From an uncultured Thermotogae bacterium (GTDB lineage: Bacteria; Bipolaricaulota; Bipolaricaulia; RBG-16-55-9; JAJCYT01), in assembly GCA_964572855.1 (NCBI GenBank), contig CAZNGF010000002.1:30551-94550 (forward strand): a DNA stretch of 64,000 nt. The letters run 5' to 3'. A model generated the notes under the pieces. The model was given only the letters and a program-made list of their open reading frames with translations, did no database searches and was not told where the DNA came from. The translations under genes were made by a program, and so were the position numbers. Positions 1 to 59,182 of this stretch are shown in pieces (the first letter of the stretch is position 1; each line of letters begins with the position of its first letter).

Positions 1-969
1 TTCTCCTTCGTCCTGGCCCAGACGGGCGTAAACACGGGTTCGATCACAGGGGAGCTGCACGCCACCGTGATCGCCACGGCCGTGGTCACCATGGTGTTCA
101 CCCCGTTCAGCGCCCAATTGGCCGAGCCGCTCTATCGCCTGTGCAAGCGCTGGTTCCCGACGCCCGTGGTCCACACCGTCAACCGGCCGACCGAGCCGCT
201 GCGCGACCACGTCGTGATCGCCGGCATGGGTCGCGTGGGCGGCTACGTGGCGCGCGTGCTGAAGCAACTGAACGAGCCGTTCGTCGCCATCGAGCTTGAC
301 CAGCACCGCATCGACCAGCAGGCATCCCAAGAGTTCCCCGTGATCGTGGGCGACGCCAGCCAGCCCGTCATCCTTGAGGCCGCGGGGATCGAGGACGCGC
401 AGTTGCTGGTGGTCACGGTCCCCAATCCGCAAGCCGCGCAGGCCATCGTCGAGCACGTGCGGGGCGTGCGACCGGACCTCCACATCGTCACGCGGGCCAG
501 CGGGCTGGAGCAGATGAGGGGGTTTCACGAGCTCGGGGTCTACGAGGTCGTCCAGCCCGAGTTCGAGGCCGGTCTGGAGATCACGCGCCAGGCGCTCGTC
601 CACCTCGACGTCTCGCCCGGCGAAATCCAGCGCTTCACCGACGCTGTGCGCCACGAGCTCTACGCGCCGCTCTATCAGCTCCACGATGACTACCACACGC
701 TCAGCCTGCTGCGCCACGCGCACCGCCAGCTTGAGCTCGACTGGGTCGCGCTGGCCGAGGACAGCGCGCTGGTGGGCCACACGCTGGGGGAGTGCCACAT
801 CCGGGCCAAGACCGGCGTCTCGGTGGTGGCCGTGCTGCGCGGGGAAATGGCCCACGCCAACCCGGATTCGGACTTCGGCTTACAGGCCGGCGACCGGCTG
901 GGATTGCTCGGCAGCCCCGGGCAGATCAAGCGGTTTGTGCGCTGGGAACGGGCCGGGTGCGTCGACTAG
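1..969 (+). CDS. Partial gene, 3' part: the C-terminal region of a CPA2/Kef-type monovalent cation:proton antiporter with TrkA-N (NAD-binding) and TrkA-C domains.
   Basis: The reading frame is open from base 1 (FSFVLAQTGVNTG…), which is the last transmembrane segment of the membrane domain. It is followed by a GMGRVGGYVARVL Rossmann motif (TrkA-N) and a C-terminal TrkA-C-like region. The stop codon is at 967-969. Confidence 0.7.
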   Translation, partial: FSFVLAQTGVNTGSITGELHATVIATAVVTMVFTPFSAQLAEPLYRLCKRWFPTPVVHTVNRPTEPLRDHVVIAGMGRVGGYVARVLKQLNEPFVAIELDQHRIDQQASQEFPVIVGDASQPVILEAAGIEDAQLLVVTVPNPQAAQAIVEHVRGVRPDLHIVTRASGLEQMRGFHELGVYEVVQPEFEAGLEITRQALVHLDVSPGEIQRFTDAVRHELYAPLYQLHDDYHTLSLLRHAHRQLELDWVALAEDSALVGHTLGECHIRAKTGVSVVAVLRGEMAHANPDSDFGLQAGDRLGLLGSPGQIKRFVRWERAGCVD

Positions 970-972
970 GGG

Positions 973-1330
973 TGGTGGAGGTGGCGGGAATCGAACCCGC
1001 GTCCGAAAACGTATCCGCTCGGCATCTACAGGCTTAGCTCCGCGTTTTGGCCTGAGACCGCTCGCTCCCACGGAGCGGGATCAAGCGGTCCGGTCCTCCT
1101 GAAAGTCCCGGCGGCGCCGGAGGCAAGCGACGCCGGCAAGCACCTGTTGTCTATGTCCGTCGGTTCCCTAGGTGCAGCGGGTTCCGGGGACAGCCCTTCC
1201 TTAGTTCAGGGAAGGAGCGGCAAACGCTAGTTCGTTGCCAGTTATTGGTGTGATTGCCGGATTAAGGAGCGGACAATCGCGCTCCGCCTGCAGCCTCGGT
1301 TCAACGTTCCCGTCGAAGCCGTTCACCCCC
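973..1330 (-). ncRNA. ssrA: Transfer-messenger RNA (tmRNA, ssrA).
   Basis: On the minus strand the 5' end reads GGGGGTGAACGGCTTCGACGGGAACG…, the canonical tmRNA 5' end. The 3' end reads …GGACGCGGGTTCGATTCCCGCCACCTCCACCA, a tRNA-Ala-like T-arm and acceptor with encoded CCA. An internal tag reading frame, …GGC AAC GAA CTA GCG TTT GCC GCT … TAA, begins after the region that would correspond to the first pseudoknot. Length is ~358 nt. Confidence 0.8.
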
Positions 1331-2840: not shown

Positions 2841-3797
2841 GTGGTTGAAACCGTGTTCCGAAAAACCGTGATCCCGATCGCCTACCTGCCGACCTCGGCC
2901 GCGACCTTGCGCTGGGGGGCACGGCTCACGCGTCGCCTCGGCAGCGACCTTACCGTGCTCTACACCGCGCAGGCCGCCCAGCAGGGCCCGCTGCACGCCA
3001 GCCTGGCGGCCGAGAAGATGTCCGAATGGGGGGTCGAACCGCCCAGCTTCGGTATCCTGCGCGAGGCCGAGGACGTGCTCAAGGCCGAGGGCGCGCTCAT
3101 GCTGGACGCCCGGGGACGGGTGGTGGAACGGCACGCCTTCAAGGCCGTCGACCGCGGCCTCTACGAGGTGCACGCGCGCGGCCCGCAAGGCGAAAACGTG
3201 CGCTTCCGGCTGCGGGAGGGTGCGGTCGTGAGCCAGATCCTGCAGGAAGTTGAGGACCCGTCCTACGACCTCATCTGCGTGGGCACCCGCGGCCGGCGCG
3301 GCTTCCGGCGCCACCTGCTGGGGAGCATCGCGCAGGACGTGGCCATGCACGCGCCGTGCTCGGTGCTGGTCGCCAAACACCTGGACCAAATCGAGCGGGT
3401 GCTCGTCGGCGTGACCGGCCGTGAGAGCTCGCGCGAGGCGTTGCGCCAGGCCGCCCAGCTGAGCCGCGCGCTCGAGCTCCCGCTCGAGCTCATCGCCATC
3501 TTCCCGAGCCCGGAACAGCGCGACGCCGCGGAGCAGAACCTCGCGGCGGGCATAGCGCTGGCCCGCGAGCTGGGCGTCGCTGCCACGCCGCGTCTCGAGC
3601 GCGGCGACCCCGCCCGGGTGCTGATCCACACCGCACTCGAGGGCACGCTGCTCGCGCTGGGGCGCACGCCGCTCTCGATGGTGCAAAAGTTCTTCCTCGG
3701 CGACACCTCGATCAAAGTTCTGGATCAAGGCCGGTGCTCGGTTCTCATTGCCGTCCCCCCCCGCCAGCCCGTGGAGGAAGACCGAACCGACGATTGA
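2841..3797 (+). CDS. Universal stress protein, tandem UspA domains.
   Basis: Two Usp-like halves are present. Each ends in the characteristic G(T/S)RGRRG…LGS(I/V)A…V…HAPC(S/P)VL(V/I) ATP-binding motif: LICVGTRGRRGFRRHLLGSIAQDVAMHAPCSVLVAKH, and a second, more degenerate C-terminal half LLALGRTPLSMVQKFFLGDTSIKVLDQGRCSVLIAV. The GTG start at 2841 is chosen because it lies just after the transporter stop at 2837-2839; the track ORF (from 2763) overlaps that gene. Confidence 0.65.
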   Translation: MVETVFRKTVIPIAYLPTSAATLRWGARLTRRLGSDLTVLYTAQAAQQGPLHASLAAEKMSEWGVEPPSFGILREAEDVLKAEGALMLDARGRVVERHAFKAVDRGLYEVHARGPQGENVRFRLREGAVVSQILQEVEDPSYDLICVGTRGRRGFRRHLLGSIAQDVAMHAPCSVLVAKHLDQIERVLVGVTGRESSREALRQAAQLSRALELPLELIAIFPSPEQRDAAEQNLAAGIALARELGVAATPRLERGDPARVLIHTALEGTLLALGRTPLSMVQKFFLGDTSIKVLDQGRCSVLIAVPPRQPVEEDRTDD

Positions 3798-3901: not shown

Positions 3902-6820
3902 ATGCTGCGTCACCGTGACAAGGGGGGATCGGGAGTCGTGCGCACAAGCGTTTATCGTTTCGCGGGGGTGTCGCTTGCCGCCGTGCTAGTACTGACGGCG
4001 TGGGGGCAGCCTGCCGTTGGCGCCGACGCCCAAGTCTCGCTCGTCGCGCTCAACCGCACGGTGCGGGCCGACCCCGGCGCCTTCGTGACCCTGACCTTCC
4101 AGCTTCGGAACGAGGGCGATGCGGCCGTCGAGGTCCAACTGACCGCCGATATGCCGCCCGGATTGTCGCTCTTGGGTGGGCTCCCCGCGGTCATGCTCGC
4201 GGGCGCCTCGATCGAAAGCCTGTTCGTCACCGTCATCGTGAGCCGGGAAACCGAGGCGGGGCCGGCCATCGTTGCCTTGACTGCACGCATCGCGGGGGGA
4301 ATGGCGCGCGCCGAGGCGACCGTCGACGTCGAGCGCGTGGCCGGCCTTAGCTTGCGCCCTCCCCCGGATGGCTCGGCCGAGCCCGGCCAGTCCATCACGC
4401 TCGAATTCGGCGTAACCAACGACGGCAACGGCCCCGACCGGGTCGCCTTGGACGTGGACGCCCCGGCGGCGGTACAGGTCGCACCGACAAGCGCCTCGCT
4501 TACGCTGCTCGCGGGCGAAACCCGCCGGCTTGCGGTCACGCTGACCGTGCCGGCCGAAACCGACCTGCCGCGGGTTCGCGTCACGCTCGTGGCCAGCTCC
4601 ACCAGTTTCCCGACCGTGAGCGCTCGGGCAACGACCACGCTCGACGTGCTCCCTCCGCTGCCCGAGGCCGTGGGCGGGCGCCTCGTGCTCGAGGTGCCCA
4701 GCACCTTCGCGCTGGGGCCGACCGTCCTCCCCAACCGCGACGTCCCGCTGGTGCTCACGGCCAGTGTGGCGGGCGCGGCCGACTTCGACGACGGGGACCG
4801 CATCGACTATCGCCTCGCGCTCGACAACCTGGCCGTGCGCGACCTGCGTTTCGAACTGCGCCGCGGCGCGGTCGAGACCCGACTGGGTCGGCTCGCTGTG
4901 ACCTGGACCGAACTGATCGATCAAGCCGGAGACGGTGCTCAGCTCACGCTCGAGGGCCTGCCGTTGCAGGGGGCCGTGAGCCTGGCTGCGCTGCTCGACG
5001 GGCTCTGGCCCCGCGTGGGGACCCAACTCGGCGCGGATGTGGTCGGTATGCGACTCCAACTCAGCCAGCTCGCCCGCTTCGACCCCGAAGGGCGGGTCTG
5101 GCTCGGGTCGCTCTCGCTTACGCAATCCGTGGGCGAGGCGATTCGGTTAGGCAGCGAATGGGCACTCAGCCAAGCCGATACCGGGGAACGGGTTTGGGGC
5201 AACGTGATCCGTTTCGACTGGGAGGGGGACGACTTCCGCGTCGACGGCGAGTGGATCCGAACCGACGCGGCTTTCCTCGGCGACCGGCCCGGCCGGCGCG
5301 GGTTCCGGCTCGCCCAAGCGCTCGAGCACGACGATGTGGCCGTGCAGCTCGCCTACAGCCGCGTTCTCGATCAGGGGAACGTCTCAGGGACGGGCGCCCT
5401 GCTCGAAACCGCCTGGCGCTCGTCCCTGCGCTGGACGCCCTCGAGCCCGTGGCCTTCGTGGGTCGCACGCCTGGACTTCGACGGGGCGCACGCCCCCCCC
5501 AACCTGGGACAGTCAAGCCGCCTGCTGGCCAGCCTGGGGATGCGCCAGGAGATCGCTCCCCTCTCCCTCGGTGCCACTGCCAGCCGGCTGTCGTCGGTGG
5601 ACGCCACGGGCGCGCACGACGACTTGACGCTTCGCGCCGAGGCGGCGGTGGACCTGGCGCCGGCCCGTCTACTCCTGCGGGCCGGACAGACGCTTGCCGT
5701 CTCCCCGCTGCACGTCGCCCCGTCCCCCGCCGGCACCGAGCTGCTGGCCGCCCTGCAGCTCACCGGGGCGCTCGGGCGGGGGGCACTCTCCCTCCTGCTG
5801 TTGGGTGACGTGGTCACGGTCGACGCCGTGCTCGACTTACAAACGGGCCCCCTGCGCGCCGCAGCCGAGTTGGAACTCGAGCTCGACGCCGCCGGCCTGC
5901 TGAGCGCCGAGGCGCGCGCGGAACTCTCCGTGGCCTTCAACGCGCCGGTCGCCTTCATCCCGGTGGGCGGTCGGGTGACAGGGGTCGCCTTCGAGGACGC
6001 CAACCAGAACGGCCTCCGCGACTCCGACGAGGCTGGCATCGCCGACCTCGTGTTCCGCGTCGGCGACGCACGCGTCCGCACCGATGCGGAGGGACGCTAC
6101 CGCACGCCGCCGCTCTCCCCCGGGGCCTACGAGATCCGTCTAAACGCGCTCCCGCTCGAACTCGTCGCCGGACCCGTTCCCGGAACAGTCACCGTGAGCG
6201 CGGGGGAAACGAAACGGGCCGACCTGCCGCTCAACCGCGTGGGCGTCGTGCGCGGCGTCGTCTTTGACGACCGCGATCAAGACGGCATTCGGGACGCCGA
6301 CGAAGCCGGGCTGGAAAACGCGGTCGTGGACCTGCGTGGCGCGGGCCGCACCGCCCCCGGACGCACGGATGACCAAGGCCGCTTCAGCTTCAGCGGACTG
6401 GCCCCGGGGTCCTATCGCCTGACCCTCGATGTCTCCGCGCTCCCGCCCCGCAGCGAGCTCACCACCCCCGACACGATCGCGTTCACGCTTTCGCCGGGCC
6501 AAACCGTGGAAGCGGCCTTTGGCGCCTACCAAAGGCCGCGGGCCATCCGTTTCGTCCCGACCGCCACCTTCACCGTCTCTCCCGAGCTCCCGCAAGCGGG
6601 GGAACCCGTTACCTTTAACGGAAGCAACTCCTTCGATCCCGACGGGCGCGTCGTCGGCCACGCGTGGGATCTGGATGGAGACGGTCAAGCCGACGCGGAA
6701 GGCGCAACGGTCACGCGGACCTATGACCTGCCAGGCACCGTCCGCGTGACGCTCACCGTCCGCGACGACCAGGGGAACACGGACAGCTTAAGCCAAGACG
6801 TCGTGATCGCCGCGCCCTAG
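3902..6820 (+). CDS. Large secreted surface/adhesin-like protein carrying CARDB-like, Cna-B/SdrD-B-type (carboxypeptidase-regulatory-like) and C-terminal PKD domains.
   Basis: A signal peptide (…VYRFAGVSLAAVLVLTAWGQPAVGADA) is followed by repeated ~100-aa beta-sandwich modules with NDG/NEG motifs (CARDB-like). Two tandem repeats are of SdrD-B / Cna-B type: GRVTGVAFEDANQNGLRDSDEAGIADLVFRV…DAEGRYR and GVVRGVVFDDRDQDGIRDADEAGLENAVVDL…DDQGRFSF. The C-terminus (FNGSNSFDPDGRVVGHAWDLDGDGQ…VTLTVRDDQGNTD) is PKD-like. The start could be ATG 3902 or GTG 3938; the track start at 3734 runs through an R/P-rich, non-protein-like N-terminus. Confidence 0.7.
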   Translation: MLRHRDKGGSGVVRTSVYRFAGVSLAAVLVLTAWGQPAVGADAQVSLVALNRTVRADPGAFVTLTFQLRNEGDAAVEVQLTADMPPGLSLLGGLPAVMLAGASIESLFVTVIVSRETEAGPAIVALTARIAGGMARAEATVDVERVAGLSLRPPPDGSAEPGQSITLEFGVTNDGNGPDRVALDVDAPAAVQVAPTSASLTLLAGETRRLAVTLTVPAETDLPRVRVTLVASSTSFPTVSARATTTLDVLPPLPEAVGGRLVLEVPSTFALGPTVLPNRDVPLVLTASVAGAADFDDGDRIDYRLALDNLAVRDLRFELRRGAVETRLGRLAVTWTELIDQAGDGAQLTLEGLPLQGAVSLAALLDGLWPRVGTQLGADVVGMRLQLSQLARFDPEGRVWLGSLSLTQSVGEAIRLGSEWALSQADTGERVWGNVIRFDWEGDDFRVDGEWIRTDAAFLGDRPGRRGFRLAQALEHDDVAVQLAYSRVLDQGNVSGTGALLETAWRSSLRWTPSSPWPSWVARLDFDGAHAPPNLGQSSRLLASLGMRQEIAPLSLGATASRLSSVDATGAHDDLTLRAEAAVDLAPARLLLRAGQTLAVSPLHVAPSPAGTELLAALQLTGALGRGALSLLLLGDVVTVDAVLDLQTGPLRAAAELELELDAAGLLSAEARAELSVAFNAPVAFIPVGGRVTGVAFEDANQNGLRDSDEAGIADLVFRVGDARVRTDAEGRYRTPPLSPGAYEIRLNALPLELVAGPVPGTVTVSAGETKRADLPLNRVGVVRGVVFDDRDQDGIRDADEAGLENAVVDLRGAGRTAPGRTDDQGRFSFSGLAPGSYRLTLDVSALPPRSELTTPDTIAFTLSPGQTVEAAFGAYQRPRAIRFVPTATFTVSPELPQAGEPVTFNGSNSFDPDGRVVGHAWDLDGDGQADAEGATVTRTYDLPGTVRVTLTVRDDQGNTDSLSQDVVIAAP

Positions 6821-6876: not shown

Positions 6877-7121
6877 TGGAAAACGTTGAAAGGAGGTGTG
6901 ACCCATGCAGCGCCGCGTCGGACGCACGCAATCGCAGCGCGAGACAGCCCAAACGGCCCGTCTCCGTCGTGAGGTGTCCGTCGCGCGCAGCGGTGTCACG
7001 CCACCACAACCGCAAGAAACCTTGCACGTGGTCGCTAAGCGCCAGTTGGGGCTCATCGATCCGATGAGCGTGGTCTTATGTGGTTACGCGGGTCAAACCG
7101 ATCGTTTCTTCATGGAAGCAT

Positions 7122-7180
7122 CTACAAGGGCAAACCAAGCGAAAGCCTGGGGCGCAAAGCTACGGCCTTCTAGGTCCGCA
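7122..7180 (+). promoter_or_regulatory. Possible degenerate or partial upstream c-di-GMP-I (GEMM)-like aptamer, i.e. the 5' half of a tandem arrangement.
   Basis: The sequence aagGGCAAACCaagcGAAAGcctggGGCGCAAAGCtacgg closely matches the GEMM 5' half: GGCAAACC, then a P2 hairpin with a GAAA tetraloop, then GACGCAAAGCC. No convincing 3' half (ACAGCCGGG…ACCG) follows before the next aptamer begins. Confidence 0.3.
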
Positions 7181-7252
7181 CGAACAAGGCAAACCCGCCG
7201 CGAGGCGGCGACGCAAAGCCACGGGTCTCTTGCAGACAGCCGGGCTACCGTA
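7178..7252 (+). promoter_or_regulatory. c-di-GMP-I (GEMM) riboswitch-like aptamer in the 5' leader of the downstream secreted pilin-like gene.
   Basis: The sequence acaaGGCAAACCcgccGCGAggcgGCGACGCAAAGCCacgggtctcttgcagACAGCCGGGCTACCG carries the hallmark GEMM-I blocks. These are GGCAAACC, a P2 hairpin with a GNRA tetraloop, GACGCAAAGCC, and a P3 with a conserved 3' ACAGCCGGG(Y)UACCG. A near-identical arrangement is found at 9150-9222. Downstream, CCTAATG…CATTAGGAGG could form a hairpin that sequesters the RBS. Confidence 0.55.
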
Positions 7253-7307
7253 GCGTACCTAATGGTGGCAGAGCCGCTAGATGCGACATCATTAGGAGGT
7301 GCTTTTT

Positions 7308-7745
7308 ATGAAGAAAGTAAGCATGTTGTTTGCGACGTTTGCGGTGTTGGGCATGGTGACAATGGCCGTTTGGGCCGGCAACAGCGACAAGGCGCAGGTT
7401 GGCTTCTCGTTGGAGCAGTACTTTTCACTGGAAGTCAAAAACGGCGCCAACGTCGAGTTCGGCACGCTGGACGCCCTGGCCGGGCCGTTCGAGAAGAAAA
7501 ACGGTTCCGCGCTCAAGGTCGACAGCAACACGAGCTGGAGCATCAGCACCAGCAAAGCGGTGCTGACGAGCCCCAACGGCGCCAACGCCGACACCGTACT
7601 CAACGCCCTGGCCGTCTCGCTCGAAACCGAGAGCGGGATAGGCAAAGACGCGGACATCAAGGTGGATTACGCCTTGGACAACCTCGAGGACCTGCCCACG
7701 GGTGACTATGTCGTCGAGGTGACGTTTACGGGTAGCACCAAGTAA
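7308..7745 (+). CDS. Small secreted protein (145 aa), paralog of the 9233..9748 product. Putative donor-strand pilin-like subunit (SCPU/CsuA/B-like).
   Basis: RBS AGGAGGTG precedes ATG 7308, and the signal peptide is MKKVSMLFATFAVLGMVTMAVWA. The mature N-terminus has an alternating-hydrophobic strand (QVGFSLEQYFSLEV). The C-terminus, …KVDYALDNLEDLPTGDYVVEVTFTGSTK, resembles the G-x-Y-x-D-T-L-x-V-T-V-x-F ending of SCPU/Csu pilins. It is clearly homologous to the second paralog (SNTSWSIS…/SNAPWVVN…; VDYALD…GDYVVEV / VDYRVR…GDYALDL). Confidence 0.6.
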   Translation: MKKVSMLFATFAVLGMVTMAVWAGNSDKAQVGFSLEQYFSLEVKNGANVEFGTLDALAGPFEKKNGSALKVDSNTSWSISTSKAVLTSPNGANADTVLNALAVSLETESGIGKDADIKVDYALDNLEDLPTGDYVVEVTFTGSTK

Positions 7746-7923: not shown

Positions 7924-8697
7924 TTGGCGATGGATTCAGAACAACTTCTTGCGCAACTGGCTCGGCTGCACGCCCAAGCCGCGCCGCAGGATCAAATCCT
8001 CAAGCTCAAGGAGGAGCTCGTTGAGGCCAACGTCGGCCTCGTGACCTCGATAGCCAAGCGCTTCGTCCACTCCGGCGAACCCTTAGAGGATCTCGTTCAG
8101 GCCGGCTACATCGGCCTCCTCAACGCCGTCCACAACTTCGACCTCAACCGCGGCACCAAGTTCTCGACTTACGCCACTTACCTCATCCAGGGCGAAATCC
8201 GGCACCACATCCGCGACAAGAACACCACCATCCGCCTGCCGCAGTGGCTTCAAAAGCTGAGCCAACAGGTCAAGCGCGCCGAGGAGCGTTTCTATCAGGA
8301 ACACGGACGCCTGCCCACCATCGCCCAGCTTTCCGACGCCCTCAACATCGAGGAGGACGGCATTCGAGAAGCCCTCAAGGCCCGCGAAGCGCTTCATTAC
8401 GTCTCCATCGATGCCGAGCGTCGAGAAGAGGATCCCCGTCCCCTCGCCTTCGACCCGAGCAAGATCCGCAGCAAACACCCGGACGAGTTCCCGATCGAGT
8501 ACAGGATTAAGATCGCCTCCGCCATCGAGACGCTCACCGACCTGCAACAGCGCGTCATCAACGACCTCTTCTACGCCGGCAAATCCCAAGCCCAGGTGGG
8601 CCAGGAGGTCGGTTACTCCCAGCGCCACATCTCCCGCATCAAGCAAGAGGTCCTCGATGCCATCAGGGGAGAATTCGACGAGCAGGACCCCGAATAA
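7924..8697 (+). CDS. RNA polymerase sigma factor, sigma-70 family group 3 (SigB/SigF/SigG-like).
   Basis: 257 aa. Region 2 (DLVQAGYIGLLNAVHNFDLNRGTKFSTYATYLIQGEIRHHIRDK) and region 4 HTH (QRVINDLFYAGKSQAQVGQEVGYSQRHISRIKQEVLDAIRGEF) are recognisable, with no region 1.1. A GGAGG RBS lies 10 nt upstream of the ATG. A TACAAT -10-like hexamer is at 7889-7894. Confidence 0.85.
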   Translation: MAMDSEQLLAQLARLHAQAAPQDQILKLKEELVEANVGLVTSIAKRFVHSGEPLEDLVQAGYIGLLNAVHNFDLNRGTKFSTYATYLIQGEIRHHIRDKNTTIRLPQWLQKLSQQVKRAEERFYQEHGRLPTIAQLSDALNIEEDGIREALKAREALHYVSIDAERREEDPRPLAFDPSKIRSKHPDEFPIEYRIKIASAIETLTDLQQRVINDLFYAGKSQAQVGQEVGYSQRHISRIKQEVLDAIRGEFDEQDPE

Positions 8698-8699
8698 GG

Positions 8700-8728
8700 T
8701 CTACGCGCCCGCGCTTCTAGGTATACTC
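8700..8728 (+). promoter_or_regulatory. Copy 2 of the GTCTA-N16-GGTATACT promoter-like motif.
   Basis: GTCTA at 8700-8704 and GGTATACT at 8721-8728. It lies 36 nt upstream of ATG 8764. Confidence 0.35.
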
Positions 8729-8763
8729 CCAAGCAACGATGGGACGCGGACGGAAGGACGCCC

Positions 8764-9057
8764 ATGAGTGATACCGCCAACGCGGACGATCGGGGGGAGT
8801 TCCTCGTGACACTGCTCAGCGACGTCAACAGCGCCATTAGCGAACTGGTCGACCTCAGCGTCGCCTGGTCGAACGGCGACTTCCCGCGCGCCCACGCCAA
8901 GTGCGACTTGGTTTTCGCGCGACTCGAGCGCGCCGCCGCGGCCGCCCAGGGAGAAGCAACCCGTTCGGCGCGTGCCCAACGTTACCTCCACCAGCTGGAC
9001 GACGTTCGCGACCAACTGACCCCGCTGCGCCCCATCCTCGCCAACCGCATCGGTTAA
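8764..9057 (+). CDS. Hypothetical protein (97 aa), acidic N-terminus, no recognisable domain.
   Basis: ORF directly downstream of the sigma factor gene and behind motif copy 2. The composition is protein-like (MSDTANADDRGEFLVTLLSDVNSAISELVDLS…). No signal peptide. Confidence 0.45.
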   Translation: MSDTANADDRGEFLVTLLSDVNSAISELVDLSVAWSNGDFPRAHAKCDLVFARLERAAAAAQGEATRSARAQRYLHQLDDVRDQLTPLRPILANRIG

Positions 9058-9102: not shown

Positions 9103-9149
9103 CATTACCGCGGTCAAATGCCGCCGTGAAGAAGCCACAGCTTCACATC

Positions 9150-9222
9150 GCGAAAAAGGTAAACCCGCCGCGAGACGGGGACACAAAGCCACGGGTCTCT
9201 AGAAGACAGCCGGGCCGCCGAA
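9150..9222 (+). promoter_or_regulatory. c-di-GMP-I (GEMM) riboswitch-like aptamer, second copy.
   Basis: The sequence aaaaaGGTAAACCcgccGCGAgacgggGACACAAAGCCacgggtctctagaagACAGCCGGGCCGCCG has the same block order as the 7178-7252 copy. Differences sit at loop or compensatory positions (loop cttgc vs ctagaag). The aptamer ends 11 nt before ATG 9233 and directly abuts the RBS (GAAGGGGTGAAGC-ATG), which is consistent with translational control. Confidence 0.55.
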
Positions 9223-9232
9223 GGGGTGAAGC

Positions 9233-10840: not shown

Positions 10841-10949
10841 GCCCTCCAGCTGTCCGCTAGACGAATGCCCGCCGCCTGACGGACTTGCGTCCCTGTGCTC
10901 CCGACTCCCCCGCGTTACATTGCACACAACATTGGGAAGGAGGACAATC

Positions 10950-11495
10950 ATGCGAAAGGTGTATTCCTGTTTAGCCCTGCTATTGCTTGCCGTTTCCCTC
11001 GTCTCAGCAGTCCCCACAGACGCCTATGCCCGCGACGGTGCGGCCGGCGGCGTCTTCTTCGATCCGGCCGGTGGTCTCTCCGACGGCGGCGTGCTCCCCA
11101 TGACCCGTCTAGTACTCGGCAGCGGCTTCACCGTTGCTCATCTCGACATCCTCTTCGGCATCTCCACCGCGTCCATCCCCAACCCGGGCGTTCGCTTCCT
11201 CCCGTATTGGGTCTTGAACTTCCCGCTCAAGTTCAGCTCCCTGGCCGTTCTCACACCATACTTTGGGGTCTCCCCGGTCCTCTTCACCACCAGCGCACTC
11301 GCCGTGCCGCCTGCCGCCGACTGGATCTTCAAGTTCGGCACCACCTTTACCTTCGGCGGTTTTGGCTTTTTCGCAGAAACCGGCTTCTTCGTCCCCTTGG
11401 CCTCGTTCCCGGCCTTCGCCGTAGGCTTCAGTGTCGATTTCGAATCCATGGATTCCCTCTTTTGCGACACGTGCATCGACGAATCCGTCTACTGA
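10950..11495 (+). CDS. Hypothetical secreted protein (181 aa), Gly/Phe-rich beta-rich C-terminal half.
   Basis: RBS GGAAGGAGG precedes the ATG. Signal peptide MRKVYSCLALLLLAVSLVSAVPTDAYA. No recognisable domain. It is the last gene of the accessory cluster. Confidence 0.5.
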   Translation: MRKVYSCLALLLLAVSLVSAVPTDAYARDGAAGGVFFDPAGGLSDGGVLPMTRLVLGSGFTVAHLDILFGISTASIPNPGVRFLPYWVLNFPLKFSSLAVLTPYFGVSPVLFTTSALAVPPAADWIFKFGTTFTFGGFGFFAETGFFVPLASFPAFAVGFSVDFESMDSLFCDTCIDESVY

Positions 11496-11620
11496 GTTCC
11501 GCCCGTACCGCAGAGCTTGCCGGCGCCGCCCGCAGCCGCAACCTCCCCTTGGGCAAGCTCCCCCAACGCGCCCGCTCGCCCCGTTTGCCGTCGCCATCGG
11601 GTCCGCCTACAATCCACGCC

Positions 11621-12646
11621 ATGGCCAATCGCAAATCCCACACCCCCGACCTCTCAACCGAACAGCGACGCTCGCTCCACCGTTGGATGCGCCTCGGCCG
11701 CCTCCTAGACGAACGCCTCCTCAAGCTCCAGCGCCAGGGCCGGATCGCCTTCTACGGCACTGCAACCGGCGAAGAAGCCGCCGTCGCCGGCAGCGCCTTC
11801 GCCCTCTCCCCAGATGACTGGATCTTCCCCGCACTTCGCCAAGGCCTCGCCGCCCTCATGCGCGGCATGCCTCTCGACGCGTACATCGCCCAGTGCATCG
11901 GAAACGCAAAGGACGTGGCGAAAGGACGCCAGATGCCCGTCCACTACGCCTATCGGGCCGCCAATTTCGTCTCCTGGAGTAGCTGCATCGCCACCCAGCT
12001 TCCCCATGCCGTCGGCATGGCTTATGCCGCCCGTCTCAAAAGACACGAACGCGTCGCACTCGCTTACCTCGGTGACGGTGCCACCTCCGAGGGCGACTTT
12101 CACGTCGCCATGAATTTCGCCGGCGTCTATCGCCTTCCCGTCGTCTTCTTCTGCCAGAACAACCAATGGGCCATCTCCGTCCCAATCGAACGCCAAACCG
12201 CCTCCGCCAACATAGCAGCCAAGGCGGCCGCCTACGGCTTTCACGGCACCCGAATCGACGGGAACGACGTGCTGGAAGTCTATCGAGCCACCCGAAAAGC
12301 CGTACTCAAGGCACGGGCCGGCCAAGGCCCCACCCTCATCGAGGCCGTCACCTACCGCGTCGGCAGCCATTCCTCCTCTGACGATCCCACCCGCTACCGC
12401 GACCCCGCCGAACACGAAGCCAGGAGCGCCAAGGACCCGATTTCAGCATATCGCGAAAAACTCATCGCCGACGCCATCTGGGATCCCGATCGCGAGCTAC
12501 AGCTCACCCAGGCCCTGGACCAACAAATCACCCGCGCCATCCGAGCGGCCGAAAACGCACCCTCCCTGCCACCACACACCCTCTTCACCGACGTCTTCGC
12601 CCAACCTCCCGCCTCGCTGACCAAACAGCAAAGCCAACGCACCTAA
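11621..12646 (+). CDS. Thiamine-diphosphate-dependent 2-oxoacid dehydrogenase E1 component, alpha subunit (PdhA / BkdA-like).
   Basis: TPP-binding motif region (…YLGDGATSEGDFHVAMNFAGVYRLPVVFFCQNNQWAISVP…), 341 aa. A TACAAT hexamer sits ~10 nt upstream of the ATG. The track ORF 10895..12646 carries a spurious R-rich N-terminal extension. No E1-beta, E2 or E3 gene follows. Confidence 0.8.
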   Translation: MANRKSHTPDLSTEQRRSLHRWMRLGRLLDERLLKLQRQGRIAFYGTATGEEAAVAGSAFALSPDDWIFPALRQGLAALMRGMPLDAYIAQCIGNAKDVAKGRQMPVHYAYRAANFVSWSSCIATQLPHAVGMAYAARLKRHERVALAYLGDGATSEGDFHVAMNFAGVYRLPVVFFCQNNQWAISVPIERQTASANIAAKAAAYGFHGTRIDGNDVLEVYRATRKAVLKARAGQGPTLIEAVTYRVGSHSSSDDPTRYRDPAEHEARSAKDPISAYREKLIADAIWDPDRELQLTQALDQQITRAIRAAENAPSLPPHTLFTDVFAQPPASLTKQQSQRT

Positions 12647-12708: not shown

Positions 12709-13203
12709 ATGCGCCCCACATTCATTGCAATCCTAGCCTCGGTCACCCTCAGCCTCGCCGCACCCCACGCTCAAGCCCAGTCGGTGTCTATCCTTCAACC
12801 CCTCCAAGACGCAACCGTCTGGGGCAGTCAGGTCACGGTACGTTGGACCTCCGACGACGCCGAGAACGCCGCCGAAACCACACAAACCCACTATCACCTC
12901 TTCCTGACAAAGGGCATCCAAACCGAACTGAACCTTCAACCCGACGAACCCATCGGCTCCGAAGCCATCCACACCACAGAAGAATCGCACACCTACACGG
13001 ACCTCTCCGCAGGCACATACACCTTTCACGTGGCCCTAGCCGACGAAAACCACGTTCCCCTCGAACCAAACGCCATCGCGACCGTCCAATTCAAAGTCCG
13101 CACCCCGGACGAACGTCCCACCGCAGACCTCCCCAACTGGCTCATCGTAACCGGCGTGGGCGTACTCCTCTTGGGAGCGGTCCTACTCACGCGTACCTTT
13201 TAA
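12709..13203 (+). CDS. Hypothetical exported protein with an Ig-like/beta-sandwich feel and a C-terminal membrane anchor.
   Basis: Signal peptide MRPTFIAILASVTLSLAAPHAQA and a C-terminal hydrophobic segment LIVTGVGVLLLGAVLL. No family recognised. Confidence 0.5.
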   Translation: MRPTFIAILASVTLSLAAPHAQAQSVSILQPLQDATVWGSQVTVRWTSDDAENAAETTQTHYHLFLTKGIQTELNLQPDEPIGSEAIHTTEESHTYTDLSAGTYTFHVALADENHVPLEPNAIATVQFKVRTPDERPTADLPNWLIVTGVGVLLLGAVLLTRTF

Positions 13204-14316: not shown

Positions 14317-14463
14317 CCCCCTCGGCTTGACGTTCACTGATCCTTTCCGGTATACAAGATCAAAAAGGGCAAGCCAACTGCCATTCAACACCGCCCAAAA
14401 CCCACCGAGGAGGTGAGCGCTTCGCACTTCCAATCGTCTGCCCAACACATCAAGGAGGTTGCC

Positions 14464-15531
14464 ATGACACAAAGAAATTCGTTCGTCGCGGCATTGTCAC
14501 TACTGGCCGTTCTCGCCTTCGCCGCACCGACAACCGCCGAAACCCTGAGCGTCTGCCCATCCGGTTGCAGCTTCAATTCGCTCCAATCGGCCGTCGCCAA
14601 CGCCTCAAAGGGCGACGTCATTGCCCTCGGCGCCGGCACCTTCATCGGCCCCGTCCGCATAGACAAATCACTCACCATCAAGGGACAAGGCGCTTCCTCC
14701 ACCATCGTCGGCGGCGGCCTCATCGTCGGCGGCGTCAACCTCGACGTCCGCATCGAATCCGTGACACTCACCCGTGGGCTAAACGGGCTCGCCGTCCTTG
14801 GTATCTCCAATGTCGTCGTCCAGGACGTCACCATCGCCGAGAACATCGCCGACGGCGTCCTCGTCACCGACCGCTCGCTCGCCACCCTCTACAATGTCGA
14901 CGTCGTCCGCAACGGTTCGGTCCTCGCTGGCAATCCCGTCGGGGCCGGCCTCTCCGCCAACGGCGCCGGCCGCATCGTCACCTCCGACGTCACCATCGCC
15001 GAAAACGTCAGCGCGGGGGTGGCCGCCTTCGGCCAGTCCAACGTCCAGCTCGGTACCCTGACCCAGGTGCTACGCAACGGCACCGCCCAAGGCATCGTCC
15101 CCGGTTTCGGCGGCGAGGGCATCGTCTTCGGCGGAACCTCCACCGGTACCGTGGACGCCGTCCTCGTCCAGGCCAACGGCGCCGCGGGCATCGCCGTGCG
15201 GGAGTCCGCCAACGTCACCATCCGCAACACCCAGGTACTGCAGAACGCGGGCGTTGGCATCCAAATTGGCGGTCCTGTCTCCAGCAATCCCGACGTCGAA
15301 CTCACCGCAACCGCCAAGGTCGAAAACACCAAGGTTGCCCAAAACGGTTCCCACGGCATCCTCCTCGGCGACCTCGCCAAGGTGCTCGAATCCGCTATCG
15401 CTACCCTCCTTGGCAACGGCATCACCGACAACGGCGCCTGCGGGATCGCCCTGGAAAGCCACGCGGCCGACGCCACCATGGAAAACAATTTCCTCTCGGG
15501 CAATCCCGGGGGATCGGTCTGCCAACTCTAA
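14464..15531 (+). CDS. Secreted right-handed parallel beta-helix repeat protein (NosD / pectin-lyase-fold-like).
   Basis: RBS AAGGAGG, signal peptide MTQRNSFVAALSLLAVLAFAAPTTA. This is followed by SLQSAVANASKGDVIALGAGTFIGPVRIDKSLTIKGQG and many ~22-aa repeats with conserved N/G/V positions, typical of PbH1 repeats. Confidence 0.65.
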   Translation: MTQRNSFVAALSLLAVLAFAAPTTAETLSVCPSGCSFNSLQSAVANASKGDVIALGAGTFIGPVRIDKSLTIKGQGASSTIVGGGLIVGGVNLDVRIESVTLTRGLNGLAVLGISNVVVQDVTIAENIADGVLVTDRSLATLYNVDVVRNGSVLAGNPVGAGLSANGAGRIVTSDVTIAENVSAGVAAFGQSNVQLGTLTQVLRNGTAQGIVPGFGGEGIVFGGTSTGTVDAVLVQANGAAGIAVRESANVTIRNTQVLQNAGVGIQIGGPVSSNPDVELTATAKVENTKVAQNGSHGILLGDLAKVLESAIATLLGNGITDNGACGIALESHAADATMENNFLSGNPGGSVCQL

Positions 15532-59106: not shown

Positions 59107-59182
59107 GTCCCCATCGTCTAGCGGCCTAGGACACCGCTCTTTCAAGGCGGCGGCGGGGGTTCGAATCCCCCTGGGGACGCCA
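59107..59182 (+). tRNA. tRNA-Glu (anticodon UUC).
   Basis: GTCCCCATCGTCTAGCGGCCTAGGACACCGCTCTTTCAAGGCGGCGGCGGGGGTTCGAATCCCCCTGGGGACGCCA. The acceptor stem pairs GTCCCCA with TGGGGAC, the anticodon loop is CTTTCAA, and CCA is encoded. A TATAAT hexamer lies ~15 nt upstream. Confidence 0.9.

Follow-up and report, generated by a model that had tools for sequence, protein, structure and literature searches.

Chaperone-usher pili are regarded as largely Proteobacteria-centred and are defined by one usher family. In Gram-positive bacteria, WxL clusters are known to encode surface complexes of small WxL, WxLIP and large WxL proteins, WxLIP being a protein that combines DUF916 and DUF3324 (PMC10599100). 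TLP-1 designates fibrils from an environmental pond, whose producer is unknown and in which cryo-electron microscopy revealed N-terminal donor-strand exchange (PMC11494351). In this report, we compare with these systems a gene set found on a window of 64,000 nucleotides (nt), that is, the whole stretch of DNA analyzed (contig CAZNGF010000002.1, positions 30,551 to 94,550 of the forward strand, from an uncultured bacterium of the Bipolaricaulota lineage). The set is made of one large gene, small secreted subunits preceded by riboswitch aptamers, and a mid-size secreted protein (Table 1).

Our main finding is that the product of the large gene, a protein of 960 amino acids (aa), is probably an outer-membrane pore shaped like the pilus ushers, as judged from a structure model. 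We estimate at roughly one in two the chance that this protein is the integral outer-membrane, usher-like platform for assembly and secretion in an undescribed chaperone-usher-type system of surface fibres, the host being a diderm member of the Terrabacteria akin to Bipolaricaulota and Fraserbacteria.

The large protein and its predicted barrel

The large open reading frame (ORF) lies on the + strand and stops at 6820, within a stop-to-stop frame that opens at 3734. ATG 3902 is a possible start, and GTG 3938 is better supported; we prefer the latter because a Shine-Dalgarno sequence, AAGGGGGG (3921-3928), stands at proper spacing 9 nt 5' of it, and because a public copy of the protein, P0001 (960 aa, 100% identity and coverage), shares the same start. 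An earlier sequence-only reading of this DNA had put the size at about 970 aa, which is now corrected to 960. The ORF is a real gene, since its frame has a GC content at third codon positions (GC3) of 0.80, and since it has end-to-end homologues, Pfam domains above their cut-offs and a confident predicted fold. As the sequence-only reading had stated, it is the only very large gene of the window (the next, UvrC, has 740 aa) and it stands upstream of the riboswitch-controlled genes, ending 358 nt before the first complete aptamer. Its own upstream region of 140 nt holds no aptamer, and it is part of a high-GC block shared with a related locus (L001), in which genes for a Na/sulfate symporter and an Usp protein lie upstream.

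An exhaustive HMMER search, with aa 1-692 as the query, revealed the family: 429 proteins were retrieved at E <= 1e-3, and at least 20 of them, 950-985 aa in size, can be aligned over their whole length with 24-40% identity. Because a 19-sequence alignment (A1) keeps the whole architecture, these proteins form a discrete family rather than a chance mosaic of modules. The sole name given to any member is 'PKD domain-containing protein'. Word-index homologue searches returned, for the full protein, only the protein itself and PKD-only or SdrD_B-only matches, and nothing for a barrel-only alignment (A5), where low-complexity Leu/Ala words swamped 8000 candidates. Some loci of Bipolaricaulota, Fraserbacteria and Halanaerobiales encode a second, longer form of the large protein, in ORFs of 1154-1649 codons.

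The CARDB-like, paired SdrD_B and PKD modules listed by the sequence-only reading are borne out by Pfam, but aa ~250-667, or 44% of the protein, had been overlooked. On the N-terminal side, NPCBM_assoc/NEW3 matches aa 147-220 with 36 bits against a cut-off of 24, FixG_C and Ig_VWA7 also match the region of aa 143-221, and the NCBIfam model choice_anch_T covers aa 20-174 below its cut-off; the first domain, N1 (aa 33-131), is visible in the structure model alone, and CARDB proper is matched by 4 of 19 relatives. On the C-terminal side, SdrD_B matches two stretches (the best, aa 774-832, with 67.9 bits) and PKD matches aa 874-955 with 61 bits. In the proline-rich linker that leads to the barrel, P239 is invariant and P242 nearly so in A1. 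All families above their cut-offs are beta-sandwiches, while Dioxygenase_C and acylphosphatase matches fall far below theirs. No catalytic domain, of a hydrolase or otherwise, was found at E <= 1 in Pfam or NCBIfam, and a secreted hydrolase was rejected on this ground.

The search for a classical anchor was equally negative. A lipobox is ruled out, as the protein contains no Cys; motifs of the LPXTG, LAXTG, NPXTG, PEP and WxL types are all missing from the 960 aa; there is no hydrophobic C-terminal helix, the protein ending in ...DVVIAAP right after the PKD domain; and no S-layer homology (SLH) domain matches at E <= 1 in Pfam or NCBIfam. Two candidates were rejected for these reasons: a sortase-anchored MSCRAMM/Cna-B adhesin (neither an LPXTG-type signal nor a hydrophobic tail) and an SLH/S-layer or OmpM-type protein (no SLH domain). 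The sequence-only reading had the absence of a sortase motif and of SLH right, but its statement that no recognisable anchor exists is wrong in substance, a barrel being predicted at the centre of the protein.

This central region, aa ~250-680, has no Pfam match even at E <= 10 and consists of short runs in which hydrophobic and polar residues alternate. With A1 as its input, AlphaFold2 (AF2) produced a model with a mean predicted local distance difference test score (pLDDT) of 88.5, in which aa 250-667 fold into 26 long antiparallel strands with turns of 2-10 residues, short on both sides, and no inserted plug domain. Across the family, hydrophobicity has a period of two (autocorrelation -0.48, +0.37, -0.41 and +0.34 at lags 1-4), and the final strand terminates at an invariant residue, F667, an end that resembles an internal beta-signal. 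The 26 strands, the short turns, the period-2 alternation and the invariant F667 are hallmarks of a transmembrane beta-barrel that ends in an internal beta-signal; we read aa 250-667 as such a predicted barrel, and the model makes it most likely that the large protein is embedded in the outer membrane.

Foldseek, run against 350,542 chains, placed eight full-length FimD structures at the top (E 1.4e-16 to 3e-13, over 730-800 aligned columns), with PapC next (E 4e-11). In a fold comparison, FhuA (16.8), maltoporin (16.3), Deinococcus SlpA (16.1) and many more outer-membrane barrels rank behind the ushers. Taken by itself, the modelled barrel would be a large outer-membrane barrel that ushers fit best; what appears to single out ushers is the domain order, beta-sandwiches, barrel, beta-sandwiches.

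It could be argued that the protein is a soluble, secreted multi-domain adhesin without membrane anchor, close to what the sequence-only reading had proposed, and that the predicted barrel is a modelling artefact. The lack of any classical anchor motif agrees with this, as does the fact that AF2 run on the single sequence was uninformative (pLDDT 35). We nevertheless consider it very improbable, and the soluble multi-beta-sandwich adhesin is not upheld, as the centre of the protein is a modelled 26-strand barrel whose closest solved relatives are pilus ushers. Conservation also weakens an adhesin reading, because the flanking immunoglobulin (Ig)-like domains, with a mean pairwise identity of 32-50%, are better conserved than the barrel (21%), which would not be expected of adhesin domains. 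The PKD domain is the most conserved part of the family (mean pairwise identity 50%), and the linker also reaches 50%; such a pattern would fit conserved contacts within a machinery better than exposed adhesin surfaces.

Partner genes and riboswitches

To examine gene order, we used the contigs of nine relatives and 13 loci obtained from a scan of species-representative genomes, for which the query was a four-sequence alignment of the N-terminal and barrel regions. In 16 of the 19 distinct loci, the direct upstream neighbour of the large gene is a mid-size gene (266-353 aa) in the same orientation; wherever a locus holds enough DNA, the mid gene is itself preceded by one to four small secreted genes of 139-197 aa. 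Same-strand aptamers of the c-di-GMP-I-GGC or c-di-GMP-I (cyclic di-GMP) type were detected with Rfam upstream of the small genes in nine loci (L002, L004, L005, L008, L009, L010, L012, L014 and L015), often one per small gene or as a tandem pair, both members being complete in L002 (3731-3810 and 3825-3910). No aptamer was found with Rfam in L003/L006, L019 and L020. The three proteins thus form the core of the system, to which riboswitch control is a common but not constant addition. The sequence-only reading had left it to synteny to decide whether the large gene travels with the riboswitch locus. Because the trio is contiguous in 16 of 19 loci and aptamers lie upstream in nine, the functional tie between the large gene and the riboswitch-controlled small-subunit genes holds.

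The same contiguity bears on another possibility, namely that we are dealing with a general channel of the outer membrane, either a porin or an uptake pore decorated with Ig-like domains, which would lie near the small-subunit genes for no mechanistic reason. Against it stand the conservation of this gene order with the mid and small genes in at least two phyla despite 20-40% identity, the absence of a TonB-type plug and of SLH, and the ranking of ushers above all transport barrels; we regard it as improbable.

The mid proteins (alignment A3, 14 sequences) have a signal peptide and two Ig-like domains, and lack a transmembrane helix. Their profile matches EfmWxLIP1 of Enterococcus faecium (PDB 9i25/9i1y) over both domains with E 1.5e-7, and dockerins with E ~1e-5. 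In Pfam, WxLIP_PGBD is matched by 8 of 14 members (below the curated cut-off for the window copy), and Dockerin_1 by 11 of 14, on a dockerin-type, calcium-binding tail of about 60 aa; PapD_N is a weak match in two of the 14, and FaeE appears at E 0.5. All 14 proteins end either with the dockerin-like module or right after domain 2. On this homology, the mid protein of the window is a candidate periplasmic chaperone or adaptor. In an AF2 prediction reported for WxLIP, a DUF916 strand inserts into the WxL domain (PMC10599100), which would amount to a chaperone-like contact.

A dockerin-like module as in the mid protein is also present on two extra secreted proteins that adjoin the large gene, one of 508 aa in L004 (5994-7520) and one of 472 aa in L008 (9325-10743), with 50-59% identity to the dockerin-like region of the mid protein. 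The L004 protein also has PKD domains, and its gene sits between the mid and the large genes.

The small secreted subunits (alignment A4, 21 sequences) have in common a signal peptide, an N-terminal alternating strand (xVxFxVxPxxxLSL), the motifs SNxPWxLxV and KPxSDL, and a C-terminal GxYxxxLxYTLTxP strand, which we take to resemble the C-terminal F strand of chaperone-usher pilins. Their profile gives a weak match to TLP-1a/b (9IKJ/9IKK), with E 0.007 over ~70 residues, which span no more than the donor strand and the strands that come first after it. We consider this match a lead, not a finding. The alignment includes the N-terminal donor strand and an S-x-x-x-W motif, and signal peptides are found in both groups; at 236-237 aa, TLP-1 protomers exceed the small subunits (145-197 aa) in length, the nearest relatives of TLP-1 belong to the Flavobacteriales, and its assembly genes are unknown.

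Five Bipolaricaulota loci have an extra secreted protein of about 300-310 aa (ORFs of 309-346 codons) between the small genes and the mid gene, entered in Table 1 as the two-domain subunit; the window has no copy of it. In L009, the protein resembles the body of the adjacent small subunit over aa 177-309 (39% identity, E 3e-20); the similarity begins past the N-terminal strand of that subunit, and the first ~150 aa form an extra N-terminal domain. Pilus tip adhesins, for instance FimH and PapG, have this layout.

Usher, surface scaffold or WxL cluster

Like FimD and PapC, the large protein has a large barrel of the outer-membrane type in its model. Beta-sandwiches lie on both sides of this barrel, and the Foldseek alignment with full-length FimD (E 1e-16) covers 730-800 columns. 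A secreted protein with two Ig domains and small subunits are contiguous with the large gene in 16 of 19 loci and may correspond to the chaperone and pilins of usher operons, the donor-strand nature of the subunits being suggested by their motifs and the weak TLP-1 match. The families of the flanking domains differ, however: where ushers have an N-terminal domain and two C-terminal domains (NTD, CTD1 and CTD2), two N-terminal and three C-terminal domains of the CARDB, SdrD_B and PKD types are found here. The partner is WxLIP-like with a dockerin-like tail and not a PapD-family chaperone, and the hosts are Bipolaricaulota, Fraserbacteria and Halanaerobiales instead of Proteobacteria.

Several observations weigh against an usher-like platform. 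The barrel is modelled with 26 strands, not 24, and the plug that ushers carry between barrel strands 6 and 7 has no counterpart. Usher, PapC_N and PapC_C do not match the window protein at E <= 1 in Pfam, the 25 families that the 19 members match most often include neither Usher nor PapC, and the barrel profile retrieves nothing from PDB sequences at E <= 10; since the plug domain and a match to the sequence families (PF00577, PapC_N, PapC_C) are both missing, we do not file the protein as a member of PF00577. When the barrel alone was submitted to Foldseek, ushers (5e-7 to 3e-6) were barely separated from BtuB (1.6e-7), and the full-length signal would therefore derive largely from the ubiquitous beta-sandwich domains. 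Typically, SdrD_B and PKD are modules of adhesins outside the cell. Among the partners, the 21 small subunits match no significant Pfam or NCBIfam family, with no WxL, TasA/M73, fimbrial, pilin or SCPU match; the TLP-1 match was not recovered when two single subunits were compared with the PDB; and WxLIP is described as a component of a surface complex, not as a proven chaperone (PMC10599100). Finally, three loci (the window, L001 and L021) have no mid gene next to the large one.

Part of these observations would be accounted for if the protein were a barrel-anchored surface scaffold or adhesin, perhaps exporting its own SdrD_B and PKD domains like inverse autotransporters. The small and WxLIP-like proteins would then bind at the surface in a non-filamentous arrangement, as a diderm counterpart of WxL clusters, and the dockerin-like modules would attach accessory proteins. 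The homology of the mid protein with WxLIP, the adhesin-type modules, the missing plug and the dockerin-like modules of the L004 (508 aa) and L008 (472 aa) proteins, which suggest docking onto a scaffold, all speak for it. The sequence-only reading had likewise thought of a scaffold for the small subunits, which may hold loosely; because of the architecture, however, an assembly or secretion pore seems to describe the protein better than a passive adhesin, and we keep the barrel-anchored scaffold as the main, though less likely, alternative. An inverse autotransporter proper (intimin/invasin, with a 12-strand barrel and an Ig-like passenger) was rejected, the barrel being too large. As in Sdr/MSCRAMM and PKD adhesins, the SdrD_B and PKD modules have motifs of the calcium-binding type, but a ligand-binding A region, SD repeats and LPXTG are lacking, and the modules flank a predicted membrane barrel.

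The resemblance to the WxL clusters of Firmicutes lies in their composition, with one or more small secreted proteins, a two-Ig protein of ~340 aa that is a WxLIP homologue, and a large multidomain protein. The small subunits also show a loose motif resemblance to WxL, in SNxPWxL... and in the C-terminal YTLTxP. Unlike in these clusters, no WxL domain (PF13731) is found at E <= 1 in the large protein or in the 21 small subunits, the mid protein has a dockerin-like module instead of a transmembrane helix, the large protein has a predicted outer-membrane barrel, and the hosts are diderm. By this comparison the gene set is not a WxL cluster, but the WxLIP fold, which both have, links the two systems.

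In an usher-like system, the following order of events may be proposed. A cyclic-dinucleotide signal, the putative ligand, would act on the c-di-GMP-I-type aptamers that lie upstream of the small-subunit genes. The subunits, which carry signal peptides, would be exported by Sec and may adopt Ig-like bodies with an N-terminal donor strand. In the periplasm, the WxLIP-like protein would hold them, possibly by strand complementation, as suggested by the WxLIP-WxL prediction and the weak PapD_N matches, and would dock on the beta-sandwiches that flank the barrel, possibly via its dockerin-like module. Donor-strand exchange would then polymerise the subunits, which would be threaded through the 26-strand barrel to the surface, where, in some relatives, the two-domain subunit would be the adhesin at the fibre tip.

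Other features, hosts and implications

The window differs from most loci in its gene order: large gene, aptamer, small subunit gene 1, sigma factor, 97-aa ORF, aptamer, small subunit gene 2, mid gene. The large gene is thus separated from its partners and sits 5' of them. The sigma factor (7924-8697; SigB/SigF/SigG family, TIGR02980 with 195 bits, below cut-off) and the 97-aa ORF (8764-9057, without family match) stand between the two riboswitch-subunit units, and no sigma factor occurs at this position in the related loci examined. GC content is lower between 6800 and 20000 (0.60-0.65) than on both sides (0.67-0.72), and GC skew is strongly negative from ~8 to 20 kb; unlike the large gene, the small-subunit and mid genes are within this lower-GC stretch.

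Table 1. Positions of the large gene, its domains, its partners and the aptamers; positions refer to the window unless a locus is named
Feature	Position	Strand	Evidence or remarks
Large gene, 960 aa	3938..6820	+	ORF and translation, Shine-Dalgarno and GTG, P0001, alignment A1, AF2 pLDDT 88.5
Sec signal peptide, aa 1-30, predicted cleavage after AVGA (between MRTSVYRFAGVSLAAVLVLTAWGQPAVGA and D)	3938..4027	+	Sequence; model helix aa 9-22, low pLDDT
N1 (aa 33-131) and N2 (aa 137-237), Ig-like beta-sandwiches of CARDB/NEW3 type	4034..4648	+	Pfam, model strands
Proline-rich linker from N2 to barrel, consensus LPPxPxxV, aa 238-249	4649..4684	+	Alignment A1
Predicted 26-strand transmembrane-type beta-barrel, aa 250-667	4685..5938	+	
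Two SdrD_B / CarboxypepD_reg-type beta-sandwiches, aa 678-770 and 775-865	5969..6532	+	Pfam, PDB SdrD matches
C-terminal PKD, aa 875-958	6560..6811	+	Pfam PKD_4, 61 bits; PDB ColH and endoglucanase PKD domains
Truncated half-aptamer, first hairpin only	7120-7168	+	c-di-GMP-I-GGC, 33 bits, E 2e-5
Complete c-di-GMP-I-GGC aptamer before small subunit gene 1	7179-7253	+	Rfam RF03167, 70 bits, cut-off 59
Small secreted subunit 1, 145 aa	7308..7745	+	Signal peptide, N-terminal strand, SNxxW, C-terminal GDYxxxVTFT; in A4
Second c-di-GMP-I-GGC aptamer, before small subunit gene 2	9149..9223	+	Rfam RF03167, 76 bits
Small secreted subunit 2, 171 aa	9233..9748	+	42% identical to L012 subunit; in A4
Mid-size secreted protein, 345 aa	9803..10840	+	Two WxLIP-like Ig domains and C-terminal dockerin-like calcium-binding module; family A3
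Two-domain subunit	L009 7950-8879; L010 3241-4170; L014 ~8008-8880; L015 ~7986-8846; L017 ~173-1045		
Longer-class ORFs of the large protein	L008 4325-9274; L011 1103-4630; L012 9794-13408; L013 482-4192; L016 1672-5232; L018 1191-4655		

Just past the large gene, a near-perfect Shine-Dalgarno sequence (AAAGGAGGTG) precedes ATG 6905 by 7 nt; this ATG opens a frame of 266 codons that runs through the riboswitch and small subunit gene 1 (6890-7705). The GC3 test did not single this frame out, and it is unlikely to be a gene. Downstream of the mid gene, the 583-aa ORF at 10895-12646 is an E1 component of pyruvate/2-oxoacid dehydrogenase (E1_dh on aa 263-560) with a spurious, long Arg/Pro-rich N-terminal extension, its real start being probably near MANRKSHTPD, ~250 codons in. 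It is followed by a small secreted protein of 164 aa (12709-13203), which has similarities to DUF4399, Kre9 and Y_Y_Y-like Ig domains, all below cut-offs, and whose hydrophobic C-terminal tail faintly matches an LAVTG sortase-signal model (E 0.03). Proteins of the right-handed beta-helix or NosD type are encoded a few kb downstream of the large gene in the window (14413-15531) and in L021 (9331-12357), a locus with a solitary large gene; the agreement could be coincidental. The window also has a tmRNA gene (973-1330, - strand, 164 bits) and a tRNA gene (59107-59179, + strand). Ten other large genes of the window, compared with Pfam, have housekeeping functions only, with no marker of outer-membrane biogenesis.

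The named host genomes are metagenome-assembled genomes of Candidatus Bipolaricaulota/Acetothermia and Candidatus Fraserbacteria, together with one distant match in the Halanaerobiales, a diderm group of Firmicutes. Bipolaricaulota and Fraserbacteria are reported to be diderm, to be sister phyla of the Thermotogae and to possess Omp-alpha/beta tethers (10.1101/2021.05.31.446380). In the first isolate of Bipolaricaulota, the outer membrane resembles a toga and some pili are present (10.1101/2025.11.21.689855). An outer-membrane barrel makes biological sense in these hosts, because they are diderm and have an outer membrane.

We found no prior description of the family or of the operon, including WxL in association with ushers and riboswitches or pili in Bipolaricaulota, in the searchable literature, whose coverage is limited and which is no proof of absence. 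A broader view, which we advance as speculative and somewhat doubtful, is that the large protein represents a third, sequence-unrelated lineage of usher type, native to deep-branching diderm Terrabacteria (Bipolaricaulota, Fraserbacteria, Halanaerobiales) and switched by c-di-GMP-I/GGC riboswitches in many genomes. Its partner would be an ancestor or homologue of the Gram-positive WxLIP, the WxL complexes of Firmicutes would be a remnant left after loss of the outer membrane, and pili of the TLP-1 type could also be built in this way.

If the usher-like reading is correct, an outer-membrane protein with the shape of an usher, and no sequence relation to the usher family, exists in little-known candidate phyla near the Thermotogae. 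It would give a testable function to a family now called 'PKD domain-containing protein', to the small secreted proteins behind c-di-GMP-I-GGC riboswitches, and to the WxLIP fold outside Gram-positive bacteria. The gene set would be a candidate for the pili that were reported, at the ends of the toga, in the first Bipolaricaulota isolate to be cultured (10.1101/2025.11.21.689855), and would bear on the remodelling of surface systems during diderm-to-monoderm transitions of the cell envelope.

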